From Minisyncoccota bacterium (GTDB lineage: Bacteria; Patescibacteriota; Minisyncoccia; Phycocordibacterales; UBA9973), in assembly GCA_043776915.1 (NCBI GenBank), contig JAYVQT010000003.1, positions 26,187-90,186 of the forward strand: DNA of 64,000 bases, in the 5' to 3' direction. The position numbers were made by a program, and so were the translations under genes. Within the stretch, counting starts at the first letter, position 1; each line of letters begins with the position of its first letter. The notes under the pieces were generated by a model, which saw only the letters and a program-made list of their open reading frames with translations, searched no databases and was not told the origin of the DNA. Positions 49,060 to 63,875 of this stretch are shown here, one piece after another.

Positions 49060-49068
49060 CATATGTAT

Positions 49069-50093: not shown

Positions 50094-50121
50094 TGCTATT
50101 ATATCATATATGATATACAAT
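50094..50121 (+). promoter_or_regulatory. Candidate promoter (TTGCTA, 17-nt spacer, TACAAT) for murA, overlapping the murB start region
   Basis: TTGCTA at 50093-50098 and TACAAT at 50116-50121. This places the -10 inside the ORF-track N-terminal extension and supports the 50146 start. Confidence 0.4.
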
Positions 50122-50145
50122 AATCAAATAACAATATATTCAGAT

Positions 50146-51654
50146 ATGAAAAAAACACAAACACAGAAAATAGGCTTCTTTATCAGAGAGTTGCGAGAAA
50201 AGAAAAAGCTGACTCAAGAGGCATTTGCCCAAGAACTTGGCACATCTCAATCAGCTGTCGCCCGAATGGAGAAAGGCGAGCAAAACTTCACTACCGAATT
50301 ACTTTCTAAAATAAGTGGAATACTCGAGCATCAAATTGTATCTATAAATAAATCTATGGATTTTCAAGTAGTTGGTGGTAAGAAATTACACGGCAGTATC
50401 ACGACGACATTTTCCAAAAATGGTTCTGTTGGTTTACTGTGCGCTACACTTTTAAACAAAGGAACCACAACACTCCACGGCATTGCTCGAATCGAAGAAG
50501 TCTATCGTGTGATTGAAATACTCGAAAGTATTGGTGTCGAAATAAAATGGACAGCTCCCAATACCGTCGTCGTCACACCACCCAAAATATTTACACTGAG
50601 TTCACTCAATGTGGAATCAGCAATTAAAACCCGATCAATCATAATGCTGATTGGTCCGTTAATCCATATATTACCTTCATTCTCTATCCCTCACGCTCAA
50701 GGATGCAAGCTCGGCAAGCGCACGATCTCAGCTCATACATACGCACTCGAAGAGCTTGGTGTTAAAATTAAAACCACAAATACTACATATGAAGTACATA
50801 TGACGAAGCTTAAGTCCTCTGATATTATCATGTACGAATCAGGCGACACTGCCTGCGAAAATATCCTCATGGCTGCGTCAAAAATTGAAGGAACCACAAC
50901 TATTGAATGTGCGAGTGGTAACTATATGGTTCAGGAAGTCGGCTTCTTTCTTCAAGCACTCGGCGTAAAAATCGAAGGTATCGGCTCAGGCACGCTTATC
51001 GTTCACGGAGTAAAAGATATACATATAAATCTTGAATACCATAATAGTGAAGACCCTATTGAATCGATGATGTTCATCTCCGCTGCGATAGCAACAGATT
51101 CCGAGCTTACTATACATCGTTGCCCGATAGATTTTCTAACACTTGAACTGTATCGACTCAAGAAAATGGGATTAAAATACAAAGTCCTTAAAAAATACGT
51201 TTCTAGGAATGAAAAAACAAAACTCGTCGATATACAAATTATGCCGAGTATTCTAAAAGCCCCATATGATAAAATTCATGCAAATCCATATCCTGGAATC
51301 AACATCGATAATCTTCCCTTCTTTGTGCCAATCGCTATACGAGCCCAAGGTACAACACTTATTCATGATTGGTTCTATGAGAATCGTGCAATTTATGCGA
51401 CCGAACTCAATAGGCTCGGAGCCAACGTTACTCTCGTCGATGCTCATCGTGTCTATATCACAGGAGGCACACCTCTTACTGCTGCCCAAGTCGTCTGCCC
51501 GCCAGCACTTCGCCCTTCTATGGTTATCCTGATATCAATGCTCGCTGCCGAAGGCACTTCTATACTTCGCAATGTCTATATGATAAAACGAGGCTATGAG
51601 GACGTCGCTGAGCGCTTGAACTCCATCGGTGCAGAGATTACCATACTGAAATAA
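50146..51654 (+). CDS. murA: UDP-N-acetylglucosamine 1-carboxyvinyltransferase (MurA) with N-terminal XRE-type HTH domain fusion
   Basis: Residues ~10-65 form an HTH_XRE-like domain (LRELREKKKLTQEAFAQELGTSQSAVARMEKGEQNFTTELLSKI). The EPT-fold MurA body follows, with the active-site Cys loop AQGCKLGKR. The ORF-track start at 50110 is also possible. Confidence 0.85.
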   Translation: MKKTQTQKIGFFIRELREKKKLTQEAFAQELGTSQSAVARMEKGEQNFTTELLSKISGILEHQIVSINKSMDFQVVGGKKLHGSITTTFSKNGSVGLLCATLLNKGTTTLHGIARIEEVYRVIEILESIGVEIKWTAPNTVVVTPPKIFTLSSLNVESAIKTRSIIMLIGPLIHILPSFSIPHAQGCKLGKRTISAHTYALEELGVKIKTTNTTYEVHMTKLKSSDIIMYESGDTACENILMAASKIEGTTTIECASGNYMVQEVGFFLQALGVKIEGIGSGTLIVHGVKDIHINLEYHNSEDPIESMMFISAAIATDSELTIHRCPIDFLTLELYRLKKMGLKYKVLKKYVSRNEKTKLVDIQIMPSILKAPYDKIHANPYPGINIDNLPFFVPIAIRAQGTTLIHDWFYENRAIYATELNRLGANVTLVDAHRVYITGGTPLTAAQVVCPPALRPSMVILISMLAAEGTSILRNVYMIKRGYEDVAERLNSIGAEITILK

Positions 51655-51703: not shown

Positions 51704-52486
51704 TTATATTTTCTTAACCTCAAAACACATAAAGAGTGGAATCTCTTTGCGAGCTATATCTTCTGCTTTTTGGCGAGGTCCATTCTGGCTTTGCTTGTGG
51801 GAAATCCACTCTTCGAGGCGAGAAACGGCAAAGCCATTCTTGGCAAATAACTTTACATAGTACTGAAGTGGTCGGTGAAATGAAATTGTTTTAATTTTCT
51901 TTTTAATATCTTTCTCGCCCGGCGTCATATCGATCGATACTTTTGTTTCAGAAAGATATTTGCCGATAATCCGATACTGTGTCCCATCTTTAAAATACCA
52001 GTCGCTTCCTTGTGGTACACGAAAACTTGGGTGATTCAATACGAAGACAATCCTACCAGTCTTTTTTAAAATACGCTTGCACTCCATGAGTACTTCATTC
52101 ACATTCTCAATATTCTGAATTGAAAGAATAATAGTAATAACATCAATTGAATTATCTTTCAGAAATAGCGCCTTATGAGCTGGTGTAGTATAAAATTTTA
52201 TATCTTTTGGAGAATTCTTTATAGCTGCCTCAATCAACTTCTTTGATAAGTCAGAAGCGGTGATGGTCGCACCACTTTTGTAAAATAGATTTGTGAAATA
52301 ACCCTGTCCGCATGCTAGATCGTACACCTGCTCACCTTTCTTTAAATCAAGTACACGAAGTAAGTTCGGTGCAATAACTTTCGACTGATAGCTATCAGTG
52401 TCATTCTTTAAAAGGTCATCGTACCAGTTGGCAACGTTGTTCCATGAAGTATCTTTTAGTTTCTTATGCAAAGGATTATTATTCAT
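51704..52486 (-). CDS. Class I SAM-dependent methyltransferase
   Basis: Motif I VYDLACGQGYF and a Rossmann-fold pattern. Confidence 0.7.
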   Translation of the reverse strand: MNNNPLHKKLKDTSWNNVANWYDDLLKNDTDSYQSKVIAPNLLRVLDLKKGEQVYDLACGQGYFTNLFYKSGATITASDLSKKLIEAAIKNSPKDIKFYTTPAHKALFLKDNSIDVITIILSIQNIENVNEVLMECKRILKKTGRIVFVLNHPSFRVPQGSDWYFKDGTQYRIIGKYLSETKVSIDMTPGEKDIKKKIKTISFHRPLQYYVKLFAKNGFAVSRLEEWISHKQSQNGPRQKAEDIARKEIPLFMCFEVKKI

Positions 52487-52542: not shown

Positions 52543-54009
52543 CTATTCAATAATAGTCATGTCTGATGCGGTAAGTCCTTTATCTAAGTCATCATGAGTG
52601 GAAGTTTTCTTACGGAGAAGAATGACACTTGCAATTGCAATAATTATAATAAAAATAAGTCCTATCTCAGTCAACATATTGTTTGATATTTTCACCTTTG
52701 CATTATCAGCGCTTGCCCCGAGAGTATTTAGGTCGATAACTCCGGGTTCTGCCATTTTTATCTTTTCTAGTTGCATCATCTCTTCTGTATTTGGTATTGA
52801 TTGTATTTTATTTTCAACTGATGCGCTGTGCTGTATGGGAACTTTTATTTTCGAAAGAGTCGGAGTAGTCAGTGGATAAAAGGCTGTATTTTCCCTATAT
52901 GGATTTTGAAGTGTAACTGATTTTAAATCTTCTGCTATAAAACCTGTTCGTCGTGGTGAGAATTTTAATTTATTTTTGGGTAACATTATTGTATTACCCG
53001 GAATAGTAAAACTATGAGTAACTCCTTGTACAGTCCAGTTAGAAATATCTATCTCATAGCCGGATTTATTCTCGAGCTCGATATATGGATCGGTCTCAGC
53101 ACCAACAGAGCTAATAGAAATCTCAGGTGAAACAACTTTTATAATCATTCGATCGGTTGCATCGGGGTGACTTACCCAATAATTGGAATAATATGAAAGA
53201 GACAAAACGTAGTCACCGGGATAATCATATGTGTAGGTGAATTCTTTCTGTTCACTAAGAGTAGTTATCATACCGTCACCGAAATTCCAGACAAATTTTC
53301 CTCGTGTGAGTGGCTCTTTACTGAGGCCGAGCGTTTGGGCGTCAACAGTAAAAGACAAACCTGAAAACACAATATTCTTCGAAAGAATATTGGTGGTGAT
53401 TTTTGGTATCTCAACTTCTTTTTTTATGACTGGTTTTATTGACACAGAAGTACTCGCTCCTCCACCTCCAGCAGAAGTCATAGTCACTCCATTAGTACTT
53501 CCTGGTTGATTATCCTTACCAGGAGTAGGAGGAGCGCCTGACCACGATCCATTCAAAAATTGAAGTGAATTCCCATCCCCTGCTGCTCCTTGGCTTGAAG
53601 CAAAGATAACTGAGCTCACAATATTTTGATCAGGATCTTTCAGTGCAATCGTCTCACTATCATTATTAAACCCCGTCCAACTACTATCAAACAAGAGCCC
53701 AGAATAATGTGACCAATCAGCTTTAAATTTGGGAGTATTTTGTGCAATGACTGCATAACCACCAGCCGGTACTTCGGACAATCCTTGTGGTACGAGCGCA
53801 TGCTTAGTATTGTCTGAGAAAAAATACCACTTAGAAAGATCAGCAGGAGCAGTACTTGTATTATGCACTTCAATCCATTCACGATTCGTATCAGTTCCCT
53901 CAAGATCATACATAATCTCTGAAATTTCAAAGCTCGCTACTACCAAATGAGGCAACAAGAAAAGGACTAGTAGTAAAGCCAGATGTAGTTTTATTATTTT
54001 CTGAGACAT
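52543..54009 (-). CDS. Cell-surface protein with lamin-tail domain (LTD) and C-terminal TM anchor
   Basis: Signal peptide, LTD signature EIMYDLEGTDTNREWIEVHN and a C-terminal hydrophobic helix. Confidence 0.65.
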   Translation of the reverse strand: MSQKIIKLHLALLLVLFLLPHLVVASFEISEIMYDLEGTDTNREWIEVHNTSTAPADLSKWYFFSDNTKHALVPQGLSEVPAGGYAVIAQNTPKFKADWSHYSGLLFDSSWTGFNNDSETIALKDPDQNIVSSVIFASSQGAAGDGNSLQFLNGSWSGAPPTPGKDNQPGSTNGVTMTSAGGGGASTSVSIKPVIKKEVEIPKITTNILSKNIVFSGLSFTVDAQTLGLSKEPLTRGKFVWNFGDGMITTLSEQKEFTYTYDYPGDYVLSLSYYSNYWVSHPDATDRMIIKVVSPEISISSVGAETDPYIELENKSGYEIDISNWTVQGVTHSFTIPGNTIMLPKNKLKFSPRRTGFIAEDLKSVTLQNPYRENTAFYPLTTPTLSKIKVPIQHSASVENKIQSIPNTEEMMQLEKIKMAEPGVIDLNTLGASADNAKVKISNNMLTEIGLIFIIIIAIASVILLRKKTSTHDDLDKGLTASDMTIIE

Positions 54010-54021: not shown

Positions 54022-56322
54022 TTATTCTAGTACTTTGAGTAATACTTCTTCAGGAACCTCTTTTCCGGCCACACGTTTCTGCCATTGACTACGTGGGATA
54101 TTTTGATTAGATTGATTCGTTTGTACAGAAGGACGTGATACTGCCTCCGGTTCAGATTTTGTTTCTACCGGATCAGGTTTCGGCATTGTAACTGATACGT
54201 TGGTATGAACCGTCACATTATGAATTGGCGTCGGCGCCACTGCTTCTGGTTCTGGTTCTGGAATCGGAATTGCCAGGCGCGTAACTGGAATTTCAACTTT
54301 TAGTGGAACTGGTTCTACGGCCGGTACGGGATGAGCTATTGCTTTCATTAAAAGTTCTTTCAGTGATGCTTTCTTATCTTCGGATGCTTCTTTAGTTGGA
54401 AGATGTATCGCGGTAGTATGATGAGACTTTTTTAATGTCGAAAGAGATACTGGAACAGCTGTAGCAGCTTTGACTGGAATTGCCTGTGGTGAAATTTTCG
54501 GCGCTGACTTTTTATGATCATCTTCAATTTTTTCAAGTAAACCTTTTAAAAGTGGCGATGGACCTACATGCTTACGCTCAACTGGCGTATACGTTGGACG
54601 ATTATTTTGTATTGATGCTCGTGGAGCCGAAGAATTGGTAGTTTTATTTTGTGTTTGCGGCAAAGGATTTAGGGGTACTGAACGCGGAGAACTTGTTGGA
54701 TATTTTTGCTGAATTTGTTGGATAGGTTGAGCGTCTCTGATCGGTCGCTGCGATAGAGCGCTCGGGGCTTTTGCTCCAGTATCAGCAAATTCAATACCAA
54801 GCATTGCAAGCGGTGCAGTTGAATTCTTTTCATCTTGGCGAGCTGAACGCGTAGCCACAAAGCCAGTCTGAGGCTTGAGCTCTCCGCTCTTAATCTTAAA
54901 CATACAATCTTTACAATAGACTGGTCGGCCCTCTTTCGGCTCGAATGGCACCATGGTTACTTTACCGCAGTTTGAGCAGTCAGCTTTAAACTTCGCCGCT
55001 TCATCACCAACTTGGAGCATACCGCTCCACTTTGATATTTCATTTTCAACTTCTTCACGGGGTCGAGCATAAAGCGAACGTGACATATCTATAATCTTTT
55101 CTTTGACTCCAGCTGATGGATCAATCGTCATCGGTGGAAGAGTGCTTGCCGAGAATGGTCGACTGGTTACGCCGTCAATCATGAGCTTCAAGTAGACGTG
55201 GTAGTTCGGCAAATTCACTAAGTCTTGCGCCGTAAACTCAGGCTCAAATTCTTTCTCAATAAATTCGGCATCATCGGCACCAACGCGGAAGATAACCATC
55301 GTGCCGACGTTACCAAAAACAGCATCACGGACTGCTGTACCATTTTCATTCGATAGTTGAGCTGTATACTGGTGAGCAATAATTAAATTGAGGCGATACT
55401 TACGAGCCTCAGAGAGAATGTTGGCAAATGAATCGGTCGCGAAGTTCTGGAATTCGTCAACATAGAGATAGAAATCTTTACGCTCATCTTCGGGAATACG
55501 CACGCGCTCCATGGCGGCGAGCTGAATTTTCGTAATAATCATACCTCCAAGAAGTGCTGAGTTATCTTCACCGACGCGCCCTTTTGAAACGTTCACGAGA
55601 AATATCTTCCCTTCGTTCATGATTTTAAATATATCAATCGTCGACTTTGACTGCCCGACAACATTACGAATAATAGATGTTGAGAGGAATTGGCCAACTT
55701 TGTTCTGAATTGGGGCAATGGCTTCATTACGGAATTGCTCACGCCACTGCTCGTACTCATGAACCCAGAAAGCTTTGACCACTGGATCTTTCAAGTTGCC
55801 GATAATCATCTGGCGATAATCTTTGTCGACAAGCAGACGCGGAATACCAAGGAGTGTCGTACCAGGAGTGTCGAGAAGTGCTAAGATAGCATTATTGAGA
55901 ATGTACTCCATACGAGAACTCCAGGCATTGGCCCAAATCTTTGTAAAAATTCCCATCAATCCTGAAGCGACCAAGTGCTTATACTTTGGATCATCGAGCG
56001 CAATGACATTGAATCCGACATTAAAATCAACATCAGCAGGATTAAAGTAGATGACATCTTTGGCACGATGATCAGGAATCAGATGAAGAATTTCTTCCAC
56101 AAGCTCACCGTGCGGATCCACCACACAAACACCCTCGCCATTATTGATATTCTGAACAATCAGATTTGAAAGGAGGACTGACTTACCTGTACCTGACTTT
56201 CCAAGTACATACATATGCTGACGACGATCGCGTCTCTTGATCCCAAAGGCATTCTTGGTGTTACGAAAATTCGTCCGACCGAAGTAAGTGATGTCTCGAT
56301 TTTGTGGGATATCGTTGTTCAT
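54022..56322 (-). CDS. VirD4/TraG-like (type IV coupling protein-like) P-loop ATPase lacking N-terminal TM, with long disordered C-terminal tail containing a CxxC...CxxC zinc ribbon
   Basis: Walker A VLGKSGTGKS and Walker B plus downstream YLYVDEFQNF...NLIIAHQYTAQL, which match the T4CP family pattern. Paralog of 62397-63875. Tail of about 330 aa rich in P/S/T/K. Confidence 0.6.
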   Translation of the reverse strand: MNNDIPQNRDITYFGRTNFRNTKNAFGIKRRDRRQHMYVLGKSGTGKSVLLSNLIVQNINNGEGVCVVDPHGELVEEILHLIPDHRAKDVIYFNPADVDFNVGFNVIALDDPKYKHLVASGLMGIFTKIWANAWSSRMEYILNNAILALLDTPGTTLLGIPRLLVDKDYRQMIIGNLKDPVVKAFWVHEYEQWREQFRNEAIAPIQNKVGQFLSTSIIRNVVGQSKSTIDIFKIMNEGKIFLVNVSKGRVGEDNSALLGGMIITKIQLAAMERVRIPEDERKDFYLYVDEFQNFATDSFANILSEARKYRLNLIIAHQYTAQLSNENGTAVRDAVFGNVGTMVIFRVGADDAEFIEKEFEPEFTAQDLVNLPNYHVYLKLMIDGVTSRPFSASTLPPMTIDPSAGVKEKIIDMSRSLYARPREEVENEISKWSGMLQVGDEAAKFKADCSNCGKVTMVPFEPKEGRPVYCKDCMFKIKSGELKPQTGFVATRSARQDEKNSTAPLAMLGIEFADTGAKAPSALSQRPIRDAQPIQQIQQKYPTSSPRSVPLNPLPQTQNKTTNSSAPRASIQNNRPTYTPVERKHVGPSPLLKGLLEKIEDDHKKSAPKISPQAIPVKAATAVPVSLSTLKKSHHTTAIHLPTKEASEDKKASLKELLMKAIAHPVPAVEPVPLKVEIPVTRLAIPIPEPEPEAVAPTPIHNVTVHTNVSVTMPKPDPVETKSEPEAVSRPSVQTNQSNQNIPRSQWQKRVAGKEVPEEVLLKVLE

Positions 56323-56368
56323 AGATTGATCTTATTATACAACAACATGTATCGTTTAAAAAGGGAAA

Positions 56369-56911
56369 TTAAATATACTTCTTCATTGCATTCATTAATT
56401 CAGGAAAAGTATCTTGCGGATAGAAGTGACCTTGGGTGAGCTCACGGTAATCACTTTTTAATTTTACACTTATAAACTGAGCTTCCTCTATTGGAATGAA
56501 TTCATCATCCACCGAACTAAATTGAATAATCCATCTTTGATTTTGTTTTATAGCATTCCAGTCCCATGATCCATCATAGTAGCCACTGACTTTCTCGCTG
56601 TCCAAACCAAGATCAGTATGGCATGGCGCAACCAAAACAGAACCTAAGAGTGTATGGTTCTCAGCATACCGCATAGCCGCTACTGCTCCAGATGAGTGCC
56701 CTATCAGAATAGTATTTTCATTTGTCCCTAAGCTTTCCAGAAACGGTAGCCAGTATGATCGGCGTGCAAGTGCTCCATCGGGGAATGTAGGAGTCAGCAC
56801 TTCGAGCCCTAACTTCTCAAGTTCTATCTTCGCATAAGAAAACCAACCATAGAGTGTATTCCCATCTCCCCCATTCCCTGGTAGAAATATAACTTTAGTA
56901 GTATTTTTCAT
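56369..56911 (-). CDS. Alpha/beta-fold serine hydrolase (YdeN/RBBP9-like, GHSxG)
   Basis: 180 aa with the nucleophile elbow LIGHSSGAV. Confidence 0.6.
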   Translation of the reverse strand: MKNTTKVIFLPGNGGDGNTLYGWFSYAKIELEKLGLEVLTPTFPDGALARRSYWLPFLESLGTNENTILIGHSSGAVAAMRYAENHTLLGSVLVAPCHTDLGLDSEKVSGYYDGSWDWNAIKQNQRWIIQFSSVDDEFIPIEEAQFISVKLKSDYRELTQGHFYPQDTFPELMNAMKKYI

Positions 56912-56929
56912 ATTTTTATAATTAGCTGT

Positions 56930-56965
56930 GTTTACATTTTTTGACAGCCGTCAAAAAATGTAAAC
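56930..56965. repeat. Perfect 16-bp inverted repeat with 4-nt spacer (gtttacattttttgac agcc gtcaaaaaatgtaaac)
   Basis: Read directly. It lies 1 nt after the stop of the upstream minus-strand gene and about 18 nt before the hydrolase start codon. Confidence 0.7.
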
Positions 56966-56966
56966 G

Positions 56967-57542
56967 TTATGTAGTATGTGTGAGCTTATAGTCAACAATT
57001 TGGCTGACCAGAATACCCCCGAAGCAAATAAGAATATAGCCAGTCATGGCTTCAAGATATGACAGAGGAATGTGGCCAAGCATGCCGAGCACAAAAGCTG
57101 AAAGCCACGACGCCAAAGACACCGAACCAAATGCAAAAGACATCTTGCGAATTTTTACATATTTATGACTCATATTAACGTCAGTAAAGTTAATCTTACG
57201 TAGGGCCGGATGAATGAGTTTTTGAAAAAGATAGCCGTTCACAATAATGACTCCCACAATACTCATTTTCACCAAGAATTTTGGCGAGTGAATATAGCTA
57301 TTCGGATCAGAGAGAAAAAGCGCAAGACCTGACAGAACAATGAAGAATAAACTAGTCCAGACAATGGTTGAGAGTGTACTGAGCGTTCGATCTTCGTTCG
57401 GTTGAATTTTCTTGTCCTTAATATACACATTAAATAAAATATCAGATATCAGCGCTGCGCCCATACCCACAACCACCGAGAGCACGTGAATAATAACTGA
57501 GATATATTTGTAATTACTAAAAAATTCTATTATGTCCTCCAT
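56967..57542 (-). CDS. Hypothetical membrane protein (about 5 TM)
   Basis: 191 aa, hydrophobic. Confidence 0.4.
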   Translation of the reverse strand: MEDIIEFFSNYKYISVIIHVLSVVVGMGAALISDILFNVYIKDKKIQPNEDRTLSTLSTIVWTSLFFIVLSGLALFLSDPNSYIHSPKFLVKMSIVGVIIVNGYLFQKLIHPALRKINFTDVNMSHKYVKIRKMSFAFGSVSLASWLSAFVLGMLGHIPLSYLEAMTGYILICFGGILVSQIVDYKLTHTT

Positions 57543-57569
57543 ATGAAAGTATTATACACGAATATACTA

Positions 57570-57950
57570 TTAATTCACTTCCTGCTGATAACACGACTCG
57601 CAATACACAATATCAGGTCGGTCAGATGCATAGGAGGTCTCGAATTTTTTTTGACATATACCTGAATGCTCATGGTTTTCCTGTGTACACATACATGAAC
57701 GATTAAATAGATTTCTCTCGGGTCTAAATTTAATACGTTTCTCGTAACGACAGTTGGGGCAAAAACGTGGAATAGGAATAACGTGCTCTCTATAGAATTT
57801 CAATTCTTCAGATACAATATTGTAATTCCGCTCACAACCTATACATTTTAGTACCTCACTGGTAATACTATCACTAATATCAAGAATACTATCAATTACA
57901 TTTTCTGGTGCTATGGTTTCTTTTCCTTTTCTTACGGGTATATCATCTTG
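57570..57950 (-). pseudogene. C-terminal portion of a split Cys-rich modular protein gene: in frame with upstream CDS 57951-59261, separated only by a single TAG
   Basis: The 126 codons after the TAG stop of 57951-59261 translate to QDDIPVRKGKETIAPENVIDSILDISDSITSEVLKCIGCERNYNIVSEELKFYREHVIPIPRFCPNCRYEKR...CESCYQQEVN, which is colinear with the C-terminus of paralog 59736-61454. There is no in-frame ATG. The ORF-track 77-aa call begins at a TTG. Confidence 0.5.
57613..57703. repeat. 91-nt segment with 1 mismatch to 59779-59869 (3' ends of the Cys-rich paralog genes)
   Basis: Direct comparison shows 90/91 identical. Flanks are more diverged. Confidence 0.8.
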
Positions 57951-59261
57951 CTATGTAAATCCTCCAGCAAGGGCTTGTTCTTTTGAAAGTGGCATAAATA
58001 TTTGGCCTTGTGTTTCGTTATATCCAAAAGGAGAAAGTAGTGAAGGAAAAAATTCGCCATATTCAGATGTTTTTTTCATATGTTCAATTAATTTATTTTT
58101 GAGTAACTCATACTCATCTTTTTCGTACGGTCTATTTAAAATACAATAATTTGATTTTTTTAACCCAACACAACCAAAAAGATTTTGAGAATTATGGCAT
58201 GAATCACAATATTCAATAAAAATATCGTCCCATGAAAGATGCGAGAACTTAGTATAGGATGAATTAGACATTGCATGAGATTCATAAATCATCATCCCTA
58301 TGCCTACACTAAATATATCCATAGCGTCTTTCACTTCTGCAGTTGCTACTGAATACTTAATAGTATCAGAAGCAAAGATATCAAAATCATTATGACAATT
58401 CTTTGAATTATATATTACATCACCAGAAACATTTACAGACCTTTCTATTTGACCATAGCGATGCAACGCGTTAGTTTTTAACATTTCTTTCCATTGAGCA
58501 TATAGACTACTTCTTGTTTGGAAAGAATCTAAGTTGTATTTTTCCATACGTACCATATATTCTTCTTTTGTGTATTGCGTATTTAAAATACAGTATTTTT
58601 TATTACGCAAATTATATGACATAAAGCAATCTGAACAATTTCTACAATCGTAACAGTATGAGCAATTTATAGAATCATGTGTCAGGAGACAAAACTGACA
58701 ATTATAATCTCTATCGCAAGAAATACATTCATAAAGGAAGGTTCCCTTATCGATAATCATATTGCAATCACATGATTCACTTACATGATTCCAACAATTA
58801 CTTGAATAAAGAACATTCTCACTATTAAAAACATCAAAGCATAAATAACAATTTTTGTTATCTTGGGAATGATTAGTGTATTCACTTTGTATTGAATTTT
58901 TAGATAATAATGCAACACGAGGAACTTTTAATTGTAACTCTAAAAACTGCTCAAAAAATGGGCGAGAAAAATCTATTTCTTGTGCAAAATCTTTTGCATC
59001 CCAACTATCACCCCACCAACAAGCTGAACAATACACTTTAAACGGAGACAGAGGATTATAAATAGTGACAGTTGATTTAGTACATAAATCACAATTCCTT
59101 CGATATAAAGTCCTTTCATTACGCCAAGAATAGCGACGGCGTTGCCTGCAGTCCGGGCAAAATGTCGGTGGTGGTACCTTCATCTTCTCGTAAAAACCGA
59201 AGTCATCCGGTTCGATTGTGAAGTCTTTTTTGCAGTTTTGGCAGGTTTTTGTTTCTTGCAT
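57951..59261 (-). CDS. Cys-rich modular protein (N-terminal zinc ribbon plus internal tandem CxxC-type repeats); N-terminal 436-aa part of a gene split by an in-frame TAG
   Basis: N-terminal CQNCKKDFTIEPDDFGFYEKMKVPPPTFCPDCR. Repeats such as NCWNHVSESCDCN, ECISCDRDYNCQFC and CSYCYDCRNCSDC. The N-terminus is near-identical to paralog 59736-61454. Confidence 0.55.
   Translation of the reverse strand: MQETKTCQNCKKDFTIEPDDFGFYEKMKVPPPTFCPDCRQRRRYSWRNERTLYRRNCDLCTKSTVTIYNPLSPFKVYCSACWWGDSWDAKDFAQEIDFSRPFFEQFLELQLKVPRVALLSKNSIQSEYTNHSQDNKNCYLCFDVFNSENVLYSSNCWNHVSESCDCNMIIDKGTFLYECISCDRDYNCQFCLLTHDSINCSYCYDCRNCSDCFMSYNLRNKKYCILNTQYTKEEYMVRMEKYNLDSFQTRSSLYAQWKEMLKTNALHRYGQIERSVNVSGDVIYNSKNCHNDFDIFASDTIKYSVATAEVKDAMDIFSVGIGMMIYESHAMSNSSYTKFSHLSWDDIFIEYCDSCHNSQNLFGCVGLKKSNYCILNRPYEKDEYELLKNKLIEHMKKTSEYGEFFPSLLSPFGYNETQGQIFMPLSKEQALAGGFT
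59164..59244. repeat. 81-nt segment identical to 61360-61440 (5' ends of the two Cys-rich paralog genes)
   Basis: Character-by-character comparison shows 81/81 identical. Confidence 0.85.
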
Positions 59262-59318
59262 AAAATTATGTGTATGATATACTTTAGTAGTAAATGCTTC
59301 TCTTGTCAGAAGCTCCGA

Positions 59319-59345
59319 GAAAACCCCGAAAGGGGTTTTTGTTTT
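59319..59345. terminator. Hairpin terminator gaaaacccc gaaa ggggttttt
   Basis: 9-bp stem immediately downstream (on the minus strand) of the MazF-like gene stop. Confidence 0.5.
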
Positions 59346-59721
59346 ATATTATAAGACGTATCTTTTCTTTTAATCTATTTAATTCAGTTGATTCTACCTT
59401 TCCTACAAAACGTAGCAATCTTTTAGCATCAAATAATCGTACTTGCGAAAGTATAACGGTAGATCTATGAAATGATTCTAATGTAAAATAATATTTACCA
59501 ATCTTCGGCTGGCTCGTCAGAGGCACACCCATAAATATATGGTTGTTAAATTTTCTGGTAATCAAAACAGGTCTTTCAAAATTCTTATTTTTTCCATCTT
59601 CTTCATCTCCAATATTTTTACCCATATGTAAAAACCACACTTCTCCTTTACCAAAGAAAATTCTCTCATTCATTGAAATTTTCTTTTTTAAACTATTCCA
59701 TATGTCAAAATCTTCTTTCAT
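59344..59721 (-). CDS. PemK/MazF-like toxin-fold protein (putative)
   Basis: GEVWFLHMGKNIGDEEDGKNKNFERPVLITRKF...FMGVPLTSQPK resembles the MazF/PemK pattern (G.vw.v.f....G.E..k.RPvlv....VvPlTs). Start set at the internal Met to avoid overlap with the upstream gene. Confidence 0.45.
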   Translation of the reverse strand: MKEDFDIWNSLKKKISMNERIFFGKGEVWFLHMGKNIGDEEDGKNKNFERPVLITRKFNNHIFMGVPLTSQPKIGKYYFTLESFHRSTVILSQVRLFDAKRLLRFVGKVESTELNRLKEKIRLII

Positions 59722-59735
59722 ATTCAAATTATAAT

Positions 59736-61454
59736 CTAATTCACCTCTTTTTGATAACAACTTTCGCAATAAATAATTTCAGGTCGGTCAGATGCATAGG
59801 AGGTCTCGAATTTGTTTTGACATATACCTGAATGCTCATGGTTTTCCTGTGTACACATACATGAACGATGGAAAAGTTTTGGTTGATTTATAAATTGTAG
59901 GCGATTAAGAAATCTACAATTATGACAAGTATGAGGAAGTGGTAATCCTACACGTTGATAAAACTGCAACTCTGCTGGTATGATACGATATGCACGTTTA
60001 CAATTCTCACACGCAATTACTTCTTTTGTAATATCATCAGAAACATCTTGCAACAAATCAGGTACACCTGAACCATCTAATGTTGTCTGAAATTCTTTTG
60101 CACTTGGTTCACGCCATGTAAACCCTTGATCAAGGGCTTCTTCTTTACGTATTGGTACATAATCTTGTGCCAAACTCTCATTGTAAGCCAAAGGTGAAAA
60201 AGAAAATGGGAAAAAGTCGCCATATGTATACACTCTCCCTTGTTCATCGACATACGGCATATCTTTCATATGTTGTATTATTTTAGGAACAAGTATTTCG
60301 TATTCTTCTTTTGAATATTGTTTATTTAAAATACAATATTTATTCTTCTTCATACTTACACATCCAAAACAATATGACGTACCAAAACAATACCCACAAT
60401 ACTCTATCTCACGAACATTACCGAATGAATTAAAACAACATTTTAGTCCATATGCTCCATCTCCACAAGTCATACACTCGTATGCATTTTCTATATTCAT
60501 AAAAAGCTGACAGGAGTCATATGAATTTGCTGCTTTTAATACACTAATCTGTACATATCGTAGATTCTCGCCATTTTCAACAGAAAAGGAATCACGTACA
60601 TTTTTTGAATCACTAATTCTATCACCGGTACAATTAAGATTTCGCGTACCATGATAATATTTAACTGGGAACTGTTGCCAAAACTCCAAAACTTTTTCTC
60701 GAATATGCACGATGGATTGGTATGAAGATAGATTCATCTCAAATATCCTTCTCTCATATTCTTCTTTAGAAAGTGGTTCATTGAAAAAATAGTATGATTT
60801 ACCACGAAGATTTACACACCCGAAACAATTCGTACAACCACGAAGTCCTTTACTAAACCACACATCTACACAACTTTCACAATCAACAGAAAAGAACGTC
60901 TGGTACGACTTATATACCATGACACATTCGTAGCACAATTCATCATCTATTAATTCATGAGAATCAAATGAATTTTTTACATTAGTAACTTTTACAAGAT
61001 ACGCCGAGTCTTCGATAAAATCTGCATCGAAACACAAATATGCATTTTTAAGTCTCCCTGCCTCATTGCAGTAGTCAGAATTAATCATAAACCCAGCAGA
61101 AGACTTTGCCATAATAGGTACTCTCTTAAACAATTCCAAAAATTGCTCAAAAAACGGCCGTGAAAAATCATACTCTACACCATACTCTAACGCATCCCAC
61201 TCATCACTATACCAATATGTTGTTTCGTATGTTTGTATTGATGATTCAGGAGGAATACCTGAAAATGAATCCTTCCCAGTATGAGCATCTGTTCTACGAA
61301 AAAGATTACGTTCGTTTCTCCATGCTAATCGACGTACCATCCGACACTCTGGACACCACGTCGGTGGTGGTACCTTCATCTTCTCGTAAAAACCGAAGTC
61401 ATCCGGTTCGATTGTGAAGTCTTTTTTGCAGTTTTGGCAGTTGCGGGTTTCCAT
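59736..61454 (-). CDS. Cys-rich modular protein, intact 572-aa paralog (zinc-ribbon module at both ends, internal CxxC repeats, duplicated KYCILN.QYSKEEYE segments)
   Basis: N-terminal CQNCKKDFTIEPDDFGFYEKMKVPPPTWCPECR and C-terminal CENCKRAYRIIPAELQFYQRVGLPLPHTCHNCR...SCMCTQENHEHSGICQ...CESCYQKEVN. Confidence 0.6.
   Translation of the reverse strand: METRNCQNCKKDFTIEPDDFGFYEKMKVPPPTWCPECRMVRRLAWRNERNLFRRTDAHTGKDSFSGIPPESSIQTYETTYWYSDEWDALEYGVEYDFSRPFFEQFLELFKRVPIMAKSSAGFMINSDYCNEAGRLKNAYLCFDADFIEDSAYLVKVTNVKNSFDSHELIDDELCYECVMVYKSYQTFFSVDCESCVDVWFSKGLRGCTNCFGCVNLRGKSYYFFNEPLSKEEYERRIFEMNLSSYQSIVHIREKVLEFWQQFPVKYYHGTRNLNCTGDRISDSKNVRDSFSVENGENLRYVQISVLKAANSYDSCQLFMNIENAYECMTCGDGAYGLKCCFNSFGNVREIEYCGYCFGTSYCFGCVSMKKNKYCILNKQYSKEEYEILVPKIIQHMKDMPYVDEQGRVYTYGDFFPFSFSPLAYNESLAQDYVPIRKEEALDQGFTWREPSAKEFQTTLDGSGVPDLLQDVSDDITKEVIACENCKRAYRIIPAELQFYQRVGLPLPHTCHNCRFLNRLQFINQPKLFHRSCMCTQENHEHSGICQNKFETSYASDRPEIIYCESCYQKEVN
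59779..59869. repeat. 91-nt segment with 1 mismatch to 57613-57703
   Basis: See partner copy. Confidence 0.8.
61360..61440. repeat. 81-nt segment identical to 59164-59244
   Basis: See partner copy. Confidence 0.85.
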
Positions 61455-61455
61455 A

Positions 61456-61941
61456 TTATTTAATCAATTGAGTAAACTGATCGAGTTGTCGACTTTTAAT
61501 AGTACTTTGTATAAAACCAAGGGTTGTTTGTAATTCTTTAATGGTATTTTGGTTTGATTCTGCGAGACGTTTTTGATTCAATACATACCCTTTGATTACA
61601 TAGTGGCGAAGCGTTTTTGTAGCCCATTGTCGAAAAATAATTGCCTTGCTTGAATTTGTTTTATATCCCACAGCCAGAACAACATCCAGAGAATATAGTG
61701 AAACTGGTTTATCTGAATTTGCAATGTGCATTTTTTGCACATTGTTTTTTGTATCAACTTCTTTTGATCTCAAGAGATTATGTATATGTTTAGTGATAAC
61801 TGAACGCTCAATGCCAAAAAGCTGAGCAATTTGGATTTGTGTTGCCCAAATAGTTTCCTTTGAAATATCAGCGTGAAATTCGATATTCCCTTTTTTGTCT
61901 TTATAGATAGCGAGGTTATTTTTTAAATCATTTTTAGTCAT
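61456..61941 (-). CDS. RhuM-family protein (virulence-protein RhuM / Fic-DOC-associated family)
   Basis: KGNIEFHADISKETIWATQIQIAQLFGIERSVITKHIHNL matches the RhuM family N-terminal core. Confidence 0.55.
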   Translation of the reverse strand: MTKNDLKNNLAIYKDKKGNIEFHADISKETIWATQIQIAQLFGIERSVITKHIHNLLRSKEVDTKNNVQKMHIANSDKPVSLYSLDVVLAVGYKTNSSKAIIFRQWATKTLRHYVIKGYVLNQKRLAESNQNTIKELQTTLGFIQSTIKSRQLDQFTQLIK

Positions 61942-62369
61942 ATGGATTTTGTGTTGAGCAGTGATGAATGGTGTGTATCTGGCTTGTACGGCGTGCCGAT
62001 TTTAATTTCTACATTTTTGATAATTTCTTTTTTAATTGCTTTTTTAATATTAGACAGGAGTGATGCTTGATCATAGCCAAGAAATAGTAAAGATGGGTTG
62101 ACTTCTTTGAGGGTATTATACGAACCTTCATCGAGGTCGCCAAGAAGCACACGATCGATCTCGGGAACTTGTAAAAGACTTTCAATACGGGATGCTTCAG
62201 TATAAATTGGTATTTTGCCTTTTAACTTTTCTACCATACTATCACGTGCCACAATAGCTACGAGATGTTCCCCTTGAGCTTTTGCTTCTTTAATAAATTC
62301 ACGATGACCATCATGAATCCCATCAAACACTCCAAAAATTATAACGGTTCGCGATTTCATAAAATTCAA
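61938..62369 (-). CDS. Small cytidylyltransferase-like nucleotidyltransferase (HxGH motif; TagD/RibL/FAD-synthetase-like)
   Basis: FGVFDGIHDGHREFIKEAK is a nucleotidyltransferase (H/T)xGH signature; 143 aa. Confidence 0.6.
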   Translation of the reverse strand: MNFMKSRTVIIFGVFDGIHDGHREFIKEAKAQGEHLVAIVARDSMVEKLKGKIPIYTEASRIESLLQVPEIDRVLLGDLDEGSYNTLKEVNPSLLFLGYDQASLLSNIKKAIKKEIIKNVEIKIGTPYKPDTHHSSLLNTKSI

Positions 62370-62396
62370 TGTATTATTATAATTGGTAATCAGTAA

Positions 62397-63875
62397 TTAA
62401 ATAAGGGGTTCACTGTTTTTTTCTTCTATGGCTACTAGATTTGTAAATTCATCGTTTGTCGAATTAGTATTTCGAGTAATGGCCGCTTTCTCTTGAGCTG
62501 AGCGAATAATGGTCGACTCTTCTTCGGCAATGAGCTTCTGAGCTTCACCGGCTGGAATAGCGTACTGGCGACGAGAAGCTTCGATAATGCGTGTACGATA
62601 TGAGGGGTGAGTTGCTGGAAGCACACGCAATGTCTCCGCTGAGAATGGGTCATAGCTTTCACCATCAATCGTCATCTTAATATAAAATTCTCCCACTCCA
62701 AGATTGATCATATCTTTGACATCAAAGATCGGTGCGAACTCTGGCTTGAGCTTGACTGCATCGTCACCACCGACACGGAATGAGATAATCGAACCAATGT
62801 TTCCAAGTACTGCTTGCTGAACTTTCGGCAAAAGCTGACCGACATACTGGTGAGCTACAATCAGATTCAGTCCATACTTACGGGCCTCTGACAAAATATT
62901 CTCAAACGTATCAGTCACGATGTTCTGGAACTCATCGACGTACAAATAAAAGTCAGCACGATCTTTCGGCTCAAGCTTGGCGCGTGCCATACCGGCTTGC
63001 TTGATCTTAGTCAAGAACATGGCTCCAAAGAACGATGAATTCTCTTCACCAATTTTTCCTTTCGAGAGATTGATGAGCAAAATTTTCTGTTGATTCATGA
63101 GCACTTCGATATCAATCTTATTCTGCTTCTGGCCGAAAATATTACGGAGCATCGGATCAGACAAGAATTGCCCGAGCTTGTTTACAAGCGGAATGATCGC
63201 ATCAGTATCGAACTTCTCGGACCAGTCGGCGAATTCGATAGCCCAGAATCGTTTGACCATGTCGTCCTCAATATACTCGACAACTTTCTGACGATAGTTA
63301 CGGTCGGTCAGCATAGAGATCATACCGCGCATCGTCGCGTATGGATAGTCGAGAAGCGCAAGGACGGTGAAGCGAAAGACGTGCTCCAAGCGTGGCGTCC
63401 AGTTTGCACCGAACTGCTTACGCAACACTTCGATTAAGCCTTGGGTTAGTTGGTGCTTAAATGTCGGGTCAATATTAGCAAGTGGATTAAATGATGACGG
63501 AAAGTCAACATCACCCGGATCAATAATGCAGACGTCATTAATACGATCTTCGGGAATAAAATTCAAGATGTCATCGATCAGTTCACCATGAGGATCAATA
63601 ATACAAACACCTTGACCGTATGCAATATCTTGACGAATCATCAACTCTTGGAGTTTCGATTTACCTACGCCAGACTTACCGATAATATACATGTGTCGTC
63701 TACGATCAACACGCTTGATACCAAAAACGAATTTCTTTTCTTCAAGTGAAGCTACGTAATTCGTCCGACCGATAAAGCAGACTTCGGCAGGATCAGACTG
63801 ACCAAGAGTTGGTAAATCTGGTGGAGGTGGAGCGTACTTTATGATTTGAATTTTATTTGGTTTGTTGAGCGCCAT
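62397..63875 (-). CDS. VirD4/TraG-like (T4CP-like) P-loop ATPase, paralog of 54022-56322, lacking the C-terminal tail
   Basis: IIGKSGVGKS Walker A and YLYVDEFQNIVTDTFENILSEARKYGLNLIVAHQYVGQL. High identity blocks with the other copy throughout the ATPase core. Confidence 0.6.
   Translation of the reverse strand: MALNKPNKIQIIKYAPPPPDLPTLGQSDPAEVCFIGRTNYVASLEEKKFVFGIKRVDRRRHMYIIGKSGVGKSKLQELMIRQDIAYGQGVCIIDPHGELIDDILNFIPEDRINDVCIIDPGDVDFPSSFNPLANIDPTFKHQLTQGLIEVLRKQFGANWTPRLEHVFRFTVLALLDYPYATMRGMISMLTDRNYRQKVVEYIEDDMVKRFWAIEFADWSEKFDTDAIIPLVNKLGQFLSDPMLRNIFGQKQNKIDIEVLMNQQKILLINLSKGKIGEENSSFFGAMFLTKIKQAGMARAKLEPKDRADFYLYVDEFQNIVTDTFENILSEARKYGLNLIVAHQYVGQLLPKVQQAVLGNIGSIISFRVGGDDAVKLKPEFAPIFDVKDMINLGVGEFYIKMTIDGESYDPFSAETLRVLPATHPSYRTRIIEASRRQYAIPAGEAQKLIAEEESTIIRSAQEKAAITRNTNSTNDEFTNLVAIEEKNSEPLI

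Follow-up and report, generated by a model that had tools for sequence, protein, structure and literature searches.

Twin coupling-protein-type ATPases at a conserved chromosomal position flank a variable row of Cys-rich genes in Patescibacteria

Two minus-strand paralogous ATPases, ATP1 and ATP2, were identified as vertically inherited, strongly conserved core genes in the 64,000-nt window (the whole stretch of DNA analysed). We give about even credence to the fuller account, in which they are ancient lineage-wide paralogues of the type IV coupling protein (T4CP) type, vertically inherited, lacking a membrane anchor, lying outside mobile elements and organising two gene modules, termed A and B. 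The setting of the pair is core chromosomal, the window containing dcw and mur genes, aminoacyl-tRNA synthetases, lepA and murJ.

Locus layout and conservation

The coordinates, common strand and shared blocks that a sequence-only reading had assigned to the two genes proved correct (BLASTP, 44% identity over 467 aa, E 2e-138), the blocks being FGIKR[RV]DRR[QR]HMY..GKSG[TV]GKS and YLYVDEFQN..TD.F.NILSEARKY.LNLI.AHQY. The spacer between them, described earlier as about 6 kb, measures 6074 bp (6.07 kb) and carries the genes that had been listed: an alpha/beta hydrolase, a DUF2214 membrane protein, Cys-rich paralogues, and PemK/MazF-like, RhuM-like and cytidylyltransferase-like genes (Table 1). 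Two of these descriptions required amendment. The RhuM-like gene represents just the N-terminal half of its family, and two of the ORFs attributed to the Cys-rich paralogues (436 and 77 aa) are a single gene split by an in-frame TAG. A hairpin at 59319–59340 lies in the one intergenic stretch of appreciable length among these genes and may represent a terminator or an operon break.

Table 1 Features of the ATP1–ATP2 locus (window positions)
Feature	Coordinates	Strand	Supporting detail
ATP2, T4CP-like ATPase without TM domain, 492 aa	62397..63875	-	
Small cytidylyltransferase-like nucleotidyltransferase (FAD-synthetase/RibL-like)	61938..62369	-	Pfam CTP_transf_like E 3e-13 and FAD_syn
RhuM-like fragment, 161 aa, N-terminal half only	61456..61941	-	Pfam Virulence_RhuM, profile positions 9-76 of 252
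cys572, Cys-rich protein, 572 aa	59736..61454	-	
PemK/MazF-like gene, 141 aa, TTG start	59344..59769	-	Pfam PemK_toxin E 3e-10
GC-rich hairpin GAAAACCCC GAAA GGGGTTTTT	59319..59340	.	
Second cys572-type gene, TAG-interrupted in frame	57570..59261	-	tblastn: cys572 residues 2-572 vs 59255-57573
DUF2214-like polytopic membrane protein, 191 aa	56967..57542	-	Pfam DUF2214 E 1e-5, below cut-off; hydrophobic maximum 2.45
Perfect inverted repeat I4, 16 nt, 4-nt loop, DUF2214/hydrolase intergene	56930..56965	.	
Alpha/beta (serine) hydrolase, 180 aa	56369..56911	-	Pfam Abhydrolase_6 and Ser_hydrolase
ATP1, T4CP-like ATPase, 766 aa	54022..56322	-	Pfam TrwB_AAD_bind E 4e-14, zf_Tbcl_2 E 6e-14; TIGR04272 E 9e-15
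LTD/PKD single-pass surface protein	52543..54009	-	Pfam LTD E 4e-23 and PKD; hydrophobic maximum 2.77 at aa 446

Conservation was assessed across 80 species-level related loci (Paceibacteria/Nomurabacteria). Identity was 78–95% for ATP2 and 73–98% for the ATP1 core, compared with 71–80% for MurA and 51–62% for MurB; with median orthologue identities of 87–88% for the ATPases versus 75% and 55% for MurA and MurB, respectively, the ATPases are thus more conserved than MurA. ATP1 and ATP2 were each monophyletic, with 72–99% identity within groups and 42–48% between them, indicating that the duplication is older than the radiation of these species. Both genes lay within 10 kb on one strand in 55 of the 80 genomes, and the 25 loci without linkage were mostly those with a contig edge or with Cys-rich copies filling the 10-kb flank. 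The order ATP1-LTD-MTase-MurA-MurB was retained. As a counterpoint, synteny among fairly close relatives can last without functional coupling.

In view of the conservation and monophyly of the ATPases and the retained synteny, the ATPases, the cytidylyltransferase and the Cys-rich family were found to hold largely conserved core positions, as expected of a conserved chromosomal operon rather than an accessory island. This did not extend to the RhuM fragment, the MazF-like gene or the hydrolase, present between the ATPases in 0/55, 1/55 and 3/55 other species, respectively. In agreement with the sequence-only reading, no relaxase, VirB4 or integrase was found in the 12 main ORFs of 51.7–63.9 kb or in the other large window ORFs scanned, a set taking in all but ~20 of the ORFs of at least 100 aa outside the locus. 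The search for island edges likewise returned no integrase, relaxase, direct or att repeat or flanking tRNA. Among 2.9 million viral contigs, only remote relatives of the ATPases and no members of the Cys-rich family were detected.

ATPase architecture and the two modules

Walker A and B motifs are intact in both proteins: GKSGTGKS (aa 41–48) and YLYVDE (aa 285–290) in the ATP1 core (aa 1–440), and GKSGVGKS (aa 66–73) and YLYVDEF (aa 310–316) in ATP2, which carries a conserved N-terminal peptide, NKIQIIKYAPPPPDLP, and ends in a conserved EPLI. Behind the ATP1 core come a treble-clef zinc finger of the pattern CxxC-x17-CxxC (aa 445–476, nt 54895–54990), a low-complexity linker of ~270 aa and a conserved C-terminal motif, WQKRxxxKEVPEEVLLKVLE (nt 54025–54087). 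Architecture and motif were alike in 50 species with total lengths of 592–932 aa. In the conservation comparison, the ATP1 tail was 31–48% identical. The earlier description of both ATPases as cytoplasmic and devoid of N-terminal TM helices was borne out: neither has a TM helix (maximal 19-residue Kyte-Doolittle means of 1.23 in ATP1 and 1.03 in ATP2; the neighbouring LTD/PKD membrane protein, used as a yardstick, reaches 2.77).

The best family assignment, as originally proposed, is to the T4CP (VirD4/TraD/TrwB) branch of the FtsK-HerA ATPases. Evidence pointing to it includes matches above Pfam gathering thresholds (TrwB_AAD_bind, T4SS-DNA_transf and TraG-D_C), TrwB as the best PDB sequence match, and the length of the helical insertion separating the two Walker motifs, which aligns best with T4CPs (350–370 aligned residues). 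DUF87 also passed its Pfam gathering threshold. A homologue on an Embleya plasmid (29% identity, E 5e-52) lies in a cluster with PrgI, an ATP-binding protein, a T4CP, a replication-relaxation protein and NlpC/P60. Because Walker A lies so close to the N-terminus (from residue 41 in ATP1, from residue 66 in ATP2), neither protein has a HerA N-terminal barrel. Unlike HerA, DptH or mad8, the pair has no NurA, Sir2, Dnd or MADS partner here and, unlike VirB4, it has no VirB4 N-domain.

Module A was shown to be a conserved, co-directional unit in which ATP2 precedes an array, evolving by birth and death, of a ~570-aa Cys-rich protein specific to Patescibacteria. This protein contains zinc ribbons, and neither a Pfam family nor a matching fold was found for it. 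In cys572, an N-terminal zinc ribbon precedes two solenoid-like Cys-rich repeats and two C-terminal zinc ribbons. The second gene of this type (43% identity) is interrupted by the TAG at 57951–57953, where its paralogue has Trp; its orthologue in another genome (L012) is intact. Copy number between the ATPases was 0–6 across the 80 species, while more distant genomes had as many as seven. Of 116 copies in the 80 loci, 109 were downstream of ATP2 and 7 were upstream; 114 were co-directional. When long contexts were anchored on the Cys-rich genes, an ATP2-like gene stood directly upstream of the array in 5/5, one of them (L099) with a small opposite-strand ORF in between. Zero copies within 10 kb were found at 26/80 loci, for instance RAAC4_OD1_1, where ATP2 adjoins ATP1, so the array is either dispensable at the locus or located elsewhere in those genomes.

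Module B, similarly shown to be conserved and co-directional, comprises ATP1 (core, treble-clef zinc finger, disordered tether and C-terminal peptide) and then the LTD/PKD protein, whose gene starts 12 bp past ATP1 and directly follows it in 37 of 40 species. The latter protein combines two lamin-tail domains and one PKD domain with a signal peptide, a single TM helix (aa ~446–465) and a 23-aa cytoplasmic tail, which ends in the conserved peptide LTASDMTIIE (nt 52546–52575). Its ectodomain is just 27–57% identical between species, yet the terminal x-A-x-D-[MI]-x-I-I-E is conserved.

The remaining spacer genes are more variable. The cytidylyltransferase-like gene, recognised in 39/80 loci and between the ATPases in 28/55, is a semi-conserved neighbour of ATP2; in two genomes (L084 and L098), riboflavin-synthase genes occupy a later slot between the Cys-rich array and ATP1. 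The DUF2214-like gene was directly upstream of ATP1 in 9/55 species. Accessory behaviour was shown for the RhuM fragment, the MazF-like gene and the hydrolase only, which are strain-specific insertions in a variable spacer. The RhuM-like gene matched the PADLOC PDC-S05/S23 models (E 3e-44), covering only positions ~1–155 of ~330, while the last 34 bp of cys572 are shared with the MazF-like gene, for which no antitoxin ORF was seen. A HicA gene was present in the variable region of L085, and serine recombinases and an Eco57I-like gene adjoined the locus in L084. Compositional deviation, suggested earlier as a check, was found at 57–62 kb, where 4-mer usage deviates more than anywhere else in the window (z 3.2–3.6, GC 0.335), but not in the ATPase cores; this interval coincides with the Cys-rich genes, themselves of unusual amino-acid composition.

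Possible origin and function

ATP1 and ATP2 appear to be 'orphan t4cp' genes of Patescibacteria. In 2918 genomes of this phylum, 5713 VirD4-like homologues were reported, about two per genome and only 148 of them near virB4; no relaxase was present, and the authors suggested exaptation (Quinonero-Coronel et al. 2025, PMC12102498). Our pair comes from the same phylum and shares the same VirD4/T4CP profile matches. That survey only counts homologues; as far as our literature searches show, what is added here is the division into two ancient orthologue groups, the absence of a TM domain, the ATP1 features (its zinc finger, its disordered linker and its C-terminal motif), the linked gene for an LTD surface protein and the Cys-rich array behind ATP2.

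Our best guess is that the two proteins are exapted coupling-type motors, docked via terminal peptides. The mechanism as a whole, drawn from sequence, is tentative and somewhat doubtful. Each ATPase would form an ATP-driven hexameric ring, picking partners or clients by short terminal peptides in the fashion of coupling proteins. The cytoplasmic tail of the LTD protein would bring ATP1 to the membrane, comparable to the TM-less T4CP TraJ of pIP501 and TraI, and the tethered C-terminal motif would dock a further partner, comparable to the TraD C-terminal tail and TraM. ATP2 would work on or with the Cys-rich zinc proteins as clients, adaptors or cargo. Both modules would have been exapted from conjugation and would probably act independently of DNA conjugation. 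We infer these partner assignments from gene adjacency and conserved terminal peptides only. Neither module contains a channel-forming protein.

Type VII secretion offers a parallel in gene order, since essC is followed by variable effector modules, and EccC binds C-terminal peptides of its substrates. Both there and here, an FtsK-like ATPase gene (or a relative of it) precedes co-directional, strain-variable genes of client type. EssC, however, belongs to another ATPase branch, and its membrane anchor, three ATPase domains and small WXG100/LXG substrates are absent here. Precedents also exist among T4CPs, which include a TM-less subfamily as well as TraD, a protein that binds TraM through its C-terminal domain (PMC7434980). 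Like the ATPases described here, TraJ has nucleotide-binding and all-alpha domains and no N-terminal TM domain, and its membrane recruitment is proposed to occur via an adjacent, separately encoded membrane protein. In contrast, TraJ is plasmid-borne, encoded in a tra operon with VirB4 and relaxase, and serves conjugation, whereas ATP1 and ATP2 belong to the chromosomal core and have no T4SS genes beside them; instead of a small membrane protein, the putative anchor of ATP1 would be the large LTD/PKD surface protein. F-plasmid TraD, whose Pfam TraG-D_C domain is matched here, resembles ATP1 in its poorly conserved C-terminal extension ending in a short conserved docking peptide (putative in ATP1). 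Unlike ATP1, it is equipped with a TM domain, and its known partner at the relaxosome is TraM; ATP1 for its part has a zinc finger and a far longer disordered linker. A Saccharibacteria t4cp homologue was reported to be non-essential (PMC12102498), which fits poorly with the very strong ATPase conservation seen here.

Alternative explanations

An unlikely alternative is that ATP2 and/or ATP1 act as substrate receptors of the chromosomal Patescibacteria T4SS (encoded elsewhere, typically near dnaA), with Cys-rich proteins as effectors delivered into the host cell. T4CP ancestry and a polar, co-directional, fast-diversifying paralogue array directly behind an ATPase, reminiscent of the essC effector modules, would fit this, as would the frequent separation of T4CP genes from virB4 and a relaxase-free T4SS thought to export non-DNA cargo (PMC12102498). 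However, the Southlakia t4cp homologue is not essential while its T4SS is (PMC12102498), no T4SS gene was seen beside the pair or among the scanned window ORFs, and some genomes carry the pair without nearby Cys-rich genes. The Cys-rich proteins themselves, tightly folded and multi-zinc with structured C-termini, are unlike typical T4SS substrates.

Similarly improbable is a T4SS-independent nucleic-acid motor for uptake/salvage, export, repair or segregation, whose rings would move DNA or RNA bound by the ATP1 zinc finger and captured outside by the lamin-tail domains. The TIGR04272 finger (CxxC-x17-CxxC) is known also on helicases, lamin-tail domains are found in secreted bacterial nucleases, Patescibacteria are without de novo nucleotide synthesis, and ComEC is dispensable for Southlakia growth, all of which would favour it. 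T4CPs such as TrwB are DNA-dependent ATPases and relatives of FtsK (PMC7434980). Against this, the modules lack a nuclease, channel or DNA-binding partner, the LTD protein has one TM helix only, nucleic-acid binding is putative for every component, and the Cys-rich array is left unexplained.

We attach a low probability to anti-phage defence by a HerA/mad8/DptH-like ATPase with Zn-ribbon sensors or effectors in a defence-island-like variable region. PADLOC mad8 matches (59 and 50 bits), several weak HerA models and the MazF-like, RhuM-like, HicA, recombinase and Eco57I-like genes mentioned above would favour it. Defence genes, however, are patchy and fast-evolving, whereas nearly all genomes of the clade carry these ATPases, which are better conserved than any other gene of the locus and have largely been observed already at a fixed position. 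Moreover, they are accompanied by no further MADS, Dnd or Dpt component and by no effector domain such as a nuclease, Sir2 or TIR, and no PADLOC model recognises the Cys-rich or LTD proteins.

Finally, the proposal that 54–64 kb is an accessory island or decayed integrative/conjugative element bounded by a duplicated coupling-protein gene is very improbable and largely refuted: T4CP-like ATPases, interior gene content differing between genomes, deviant composition and typical island cargo (MazF-like and RhuM-like genes) speak for it, but both ATPases keep the same position beside murA/murB in dozens of species, their duplication is ancient, mobility genes and edge signals were absent from the scanned ORFs and edges, and the deviation sits on the Cys-rich genes and not on the ATPase cores. 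What stands of the accessory stretch is its variable interior; the ATPases are conserved core genes and not its boundaries.

The twin ATPase locus is best regarded, in line with our preferred account of vertically inherited T4CP-type paralogues, as a conserved cellular machine at a fixed chromosomal place rather than a mobile island, enclosing a fast-changing row of Cys-rich zinc proteins.

Chromosomal setting of the two ATPase genes

The two ATPases, here called ATP1 and ATP2, were 44% identical over 467 aa (E 2e-138) and shared the Walker A and B blocks cited in the sequence-only reading, as expected for the same-strand paralogues that it describes. In the ORF listing they belong to a row of twelve very tightly spaced genes, all on the minus strand, which runs from 63875 to 51704, and the genes reported between the ATPases were all present in a spacer of 6.07 kb. 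The same reading had interpreted this region as an accessory island or a decayed integrative element. Related genomes were scanned, retaining one genome per species, which resulted in 80 loci in which every locus protein was mapped by tblastn; all labels of homologues were those of Patescibacteria (Paceibacterota, Nomurabacteria or Minisyncoccia).

The ATPase pair was found in essentially all 80 relatives. Both genes were located no more than 10 kb apart, always on the same strand and with a spacing of 147–9801 bp, in 55 of the 80 loci, the other 25 mostly meeting a contig edge or having the 10-kb flank filled by copies of a Cys-rich gene family. The order ATP2 ... ATP1, LTD protein (a lamin-tail/PKD surface protein), methyltransferase, murA, murB was widely recurrent, and the complete genome RAAC4_OD1_1 (L008) has ATP2 directly beside ATP1. 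Identity to orthologues across the 80 loci was 78–95% (median 87%) for ATP2 and 73–98% (median 88%) for the ATP1 core, compared with medians of 75% for MurA, 71% for the methyltransferase, 55% for MurB and 36% for the LTD protein. Additionally, a neighbour-joining tree with an actinobacterial type IV coupling protein (T4CP) as outgroup recovered the ATP1 and ATP2 groups as monophyletic, with 72–99% identity within and 42–48% between groups. Collectively, identity, synteny and tree argue for an ancient duplication and for two vertically inherited core genes.

The syntenic comparison therefore places the pair at a conserved core position, and the locus is a conserved core locus mislabelled as an island; that 54–64 kb represents an island or a decayed ICE is now extremely improbable. 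The reported lack of a relaxase, VirB4 or integrase was confirmed among the window ORFs scanned, and no transposase was seen among them either. No tRNA gene was present at the border, the nearest being 5 kb away, and no flanking direct repeats of at least 24 nt were found other than those derived from paralogy. An Nramp gene lies on the opposite strand just past the window end, within the 1.4 kb beyond ATP2 that short Logan contigs covered. Elsewhere the window consists of core chromosomal genes, including mraW, a PBP gene, murC/D/E-type ligases, murJ, lepA, LeuRS and other aminoacyl-tRNA synthetases, alr, murB and the HTH-fused murA. The latter fusion is conserved along its whole length in related genomes (71–80% identity over ~ 500 aa).

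Of the two compositional signals considered for the island, a GC-skew break was absent from the region, and a 4-mer deviation was present, with 57–62 kb as the most deviant interval of the window (z 3.2–3.6, GC 0.335). We do not take this deviation as clear evidence of horizontal transfer, since the interval coincides with the Cys-rich genes, whose amino-acid composition is extreme. The 4-kb windows dominated by the ATPase cores were not deviant, while those covering the low-complexity tail of ATP1 reached z 1.8. The second most deviant interval (z ~ 2) was an isoprenoid/carotenoid-like cluster, unusual for a reduced Patescibacteria genome.

Positions of the features discussed, in window coordinates unless a locus of a related genome is named
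Feature	Position	Strand	Description
Isoprenoid/carotenoid-like cluster	35294-39534		UbiA prenyltransferase, flavin amine-oxidase/phytoene-desaturase-like, squalene/phytoene synthase, polyprenyl synthase
Phosphoribosyltransferase-like gene	48160-48927	-	255 aa; weak match, possibly ComF-like; beside alanine racemase, ~5 kb from ATP1
Nearest tRNA	48978-49060
HTH-fused murA	50110-51654	+	EPSP_synthase fold with N-terminal HTH_3 (Cro/C1-type) domain
Methyltransferase gene	51704-52486	-
LTD protein gene	52543-54009	-	directly after ATP1
ATP1	54022-56322	-	766 aa
Palindrome	56930-56965		perfect, 16 nt, 4-nt loop; between DUF2214 and hydrolase genes
Split cys572-type gene	57570-59261	-	436-aa and 77-aa ORFs
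In-frame TAG of the split gene	57951-57953
GC-rich hairpin	59319-59340		flanked by T/A runs; in the one sizeable gap between genes of the row
MazF/PemK-like gene	59344-59769	-	141 aa; TTG start
cys572	59736-61454	-	572 aa; Cys-rich zinc-ribbon protein
RhuM-like gene	61456-61941	-	between cytidylyltransferase gene (4-bp overlap on one side) and cys572 (1-bp gap on the other)
ATP2	62397-63875	-	492 aa
Serine-recombinase genes (two) and Eco57I-like methyltransferase gene	L084:1-4779		just upstream of the ATP2 locus
Riboflavin synthase (Lum_binding) and lumazine synthase genes	L084:11721-12827, L098:13454-14495		between Cys-rich array and ATP1
Gene with weak DUF8128 match	L100:4826-6235		two genes upstream of an ATP2-like gene

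Architecture of the ATPases and their candidate partner genes

The nucleotide-binding domain of both proteins is of the FtsK/HerA type and has both Walker motifs, with Walker A at residue 41 in ATP1 and residue 66 in ATP2. In line with the claimed lack of N-terminal TM helices, no hydrophobic segment was seen in either, with maximal 19-residue Kyte-Doolittle means of 1.23 (ATP1) and 1.03 (ATP2) versus 2.8 for a neighbouring membrane protein; the N-terminal transmembrane domain typical of T4CPs is absent from both. ATP1 had a uniform architecture in 50 species (592–932 aa in total length), consisting of the core, a CxxC-x17-CxxC finger (a zf_Tbcl_2/TIGR04272 match), a variable low-complexity linker and a nearly invariant C-terminal motif, ..WQKRxxxKEVPEDVLRKVLE (for ATP1 also written KEVPEDVLRKVLE).

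In ATP2 an N-terminal peptide and the C-terminal end EPLI are conserved. Relatives at 45–53% identity keep this end as [EA]P[ILF][ILV] and can carry an extra N-terminal domain of 250–400 aa, sometimes with a TM helix. Among database proteins, the nearest 50%-cluster relatives (P0256–P0278) have such an extra domain without a Pfam family, most of them end in [EA]P[ILF][ILV], and P0265, P0275 and P0278 begin with a TM helix. The extra domain had no Pfam match, DUF8128 included, and no separately encoded copy of the N-terminal TM helix plus extra domain was detected in the window or the 80 loci. One related locus, L100, has a gene with a weak DUF8128 match upstream of its ATP2-like gene.

In 37 of 40 species, and also in the distant loci L084 and L098, the gene after ATP1 is the LTD gene. 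Its product comprises a signal peptide, two lamin-tail domains, a PKD domain and one TM helix; the ectodomain is 27–57% identical among species and the end of the cytoplasmic tail, ..A-x-D-M-T-I-I-E, is conserved (..ASDMTIIE in the window).

ATP2 is accompanied by the Cys-rich family, of which cys572 is the representative in the window. Copies of this family in the 80 loci numbered 116, of which 109 were downstream and 7 upstream of ATP2 (1.79 vs 0.13 per 10 kb) and 114 were co-directional with it. Five long contigs were identified through their Cys-rich proteins and not through ATP2; in all five, an ATP2-like gene stood directly upstream of an array of 2–7 copies or, in L099, was separated from it by one small opposite-strand ORF. 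An exact look-up of the cys572 protein of the window found no record. The family has at least 7980 homologues (8000 candidates scored); among the matches listed all were unnamed or hypothetical, save one labelled ‘YbaR (Trm112 family)’ by JGI. Cys-rich proteins had no Pfam family and no PDB fold match, and no members were found in 2.9 million viral contigs. A literature search on this family, on Patescibacteria lamin-tail domains and on the CxxC-x17-CxxC finger returned nothing relevant. In their polar arrays of 0–7 copies, the Cys-rich genes resemble host-interaction or client proteins. One cys572-type gene of the window is split by an in-frame TAG, replacing a conserved Trp (TGG in the paralogue), while the L012 orthologue is intact; the stop marks a pseudogene, arose by nonsense mutation very recently or stems from an error in sequencing.

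The content of the spacer varied across the 55 species with closely spaced ATPases. The number of Cys-rich copies was zero in 24, one in 12, two in 12, three in six and six in one, and a cytidylyltransferase-like gene was present in 28, a DUF2214 gene in nine, the hydrolase gene in three, the MazF-like gene in one and the RhuM-like gene in none. Among relatives, patchiness is confined to the RhuM, MazF and hydrolase genes. The RhuM-like gene covers the N-terminal half of the RhuM and PADLOC PDC-S05/S23 models only. The MazF/PemK-like gene (PemK_toxin E 3e-10) has no small upstream antitoxin ORF in the ORF listing, as it shares 34 bp with the 3′ end of cys572; a 44%-identical copy is located just upstream of ATP2 in L076. 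A scan for promoter and terminator consensus sequences gave counts near shuffled expectation, and one hairpin alone was retained from it; the palindrome and the GC-rich hairpin of the spacer may be regulatory or terminator elements. The serine-recombinase and Eco57I-like methyltransferase genes beside the locus in L084 suggest that the locus edge may be an insertion hot spot in some lineages. In addition, a recurrent association with flavin metabolism was seen: riboflavin and lumazine synthase genes in L084 and L098, and, in the window clade, on the opposite side of the array beside ATP2, a small FAD-synthetase-like cytidylyltransferase.

Family placement and alternative roles

Fold comparison gave values of 22.9 for the DptH C-domain (321 aligned residues), 22.7 for the VirB4 C-domain (324), 22.6 for TrwB (350), 21.6 for Cag-beta (370), 20.7 for HerA (309) and 16 for FtsK (226). 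These values place the modelled fold in the VirD4/VirB4/HerA branch, without discrimination inside it. The all-alpha insertion of T4CPs appears in the AF2 model as a helical block at aa 137–261 between Walker A and Walker B, as judged by block position and alignment length.

Three sequence lines favour a T4CP origin. Firstly, the best Pfam models are T4CP families, with both proteins above gathering thresholds for TrwB_AAD_bind (aa 29–348 of ATP1, 52.6 bits vs a cut-off of 20.5), T4SS-DNA_transf and TraG-D_C; DUF87 also exceeded its threshold (36 and 33 bits), a match attributable to the shared P-loop core. Secondly, TrwB was the best match (E 0.0025) in PDB sequence searches with single sequence and profile, although these gave marginal matches only and cannot alone place the family. 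Thirdly, an Embleya plasmid homologue (29% identity, E 5e-52) is located in a monoderm conjugation cluster, with a PrgI-family gene, an ATP-binding protein, a replication-relaxation protein and an NlpC/P60 hydrolase as neighbours. The NCBIfam TraD and VirD4 equivalogs scored far below their cut-offs (e.g. 48.6 vs 366 bits). On this sequence basis we file the ATPases as a probable divergent, TM-less T4CP offshoot outside every curated T4CP equivalog. The wider family is a large one: it counts 21,296 cluster representatives at E ≤ 1e-3 and 5480 at E ≤ 1e-30. Viral contigs contained only 10 remote relatives at 30–42% identity.

It is unlikely that the ATPases are receptors for a chromosomal type IV secretion system (T4SS) with the Cys-rich proteins as effectors. 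The Southlakia homologue is non-essential though the T4SS is essential (PMC12102498), and no VirB4 or relaxase association was found among the window ORFs scanned by Pfam.

A motor for nucleic-acid uptake, salvage or repair is likewise improbable. Membership of the HerA helicases is not supported: there is no space for an N-terminal HAS-barrel, and no NurA, Sir2 or other effector gene was found at the locus. A role as a defence system is decidedly unlikely; PADLOC mad8 matched both ATPases (59.5 and 50.1 bits), at a level similar to that of the T4CP models, and no MADS or Dnd-Dpt partners were found by PADLOC among the other eight locus proteins scanned (all but the methyltransferase).

Proposed mechanism and significance

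We propose that ATP1 and ATP2 could be motors of the coupling type, hexameric and powered by ATP, which recognise short terminal peptides. The LTD tail would hold ATP1 at the membrane, the tethered C-terminal motif of ATP1 would dock a further partner, and ATP2 would work on or with the Cys-rich proteins. Precedents exist in conjugation systems: a T4CP subfamily without TM domain is known, pIP501 TraJ is paired with a membrane protein, TraI, and TraD binds TraM through its C-terminal domain (review, PMC7434980). The evolutionary and anatomical part of this account is very likely correct and the docking mechanism is tentative, rather doubtful at present; for evolution, anatomy and mechanism taken as a whole, we consider the case evenly balanced. 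A more far-reaching reading, which we regard as speculative and unlikely, is that ATP1 with the LTD protein and ATP2 with the Cys-rich array make up a trafficking machine confined to Patescibacteria, not described before, with a conjugative coupling protein as its ancestor. C-terminal peptide docking would then clamp its TM-less motor to a surface receptor, and the cargo, taken across or to the envelope while the epibiont interacts with its host, would be nucleic acid or the polymorphic zinc-ribbon proteins.

T4CP-like genes in Patescibacteria are already known and will not surprise a specialist; a survey counted VirD4-like genes at about two per genome and at a distance from the T4SS, with only 148 of 5713 homologues near virB4, and suggested exaptation (Quinonero-Coronel et al. 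2025, PMC12102498). The T4SS cluster of Southlakia has neither a coupling protein nor a relaxase that can be recognised (Wang et al. 2023, PMC10633639). The paralogue structure, domain architecture and partners were not found in PMC12102498, PMC10633639 or PMC7434980, and the locus contains a new architecture within a known kind of protein. The Cys-rich homologues are flagged as a very large uncharacterised family. Patescibacteria represent a large share of bacterial diversity and are host-dependent. The locus gives the bare count of the survey a concrete anatomy, with two orthologue groups of ancient origin, both subject to very strong purifying selection and each with a fixed partner: a LTD protein with a conserved tail peptide in one case and an expanding Cys-rich zinc family in the other. 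The conserved terminal peptides predict specific docking interactions, and these predictions, together with the two-module organisation, make the role of the exapted ATPases directly testable.
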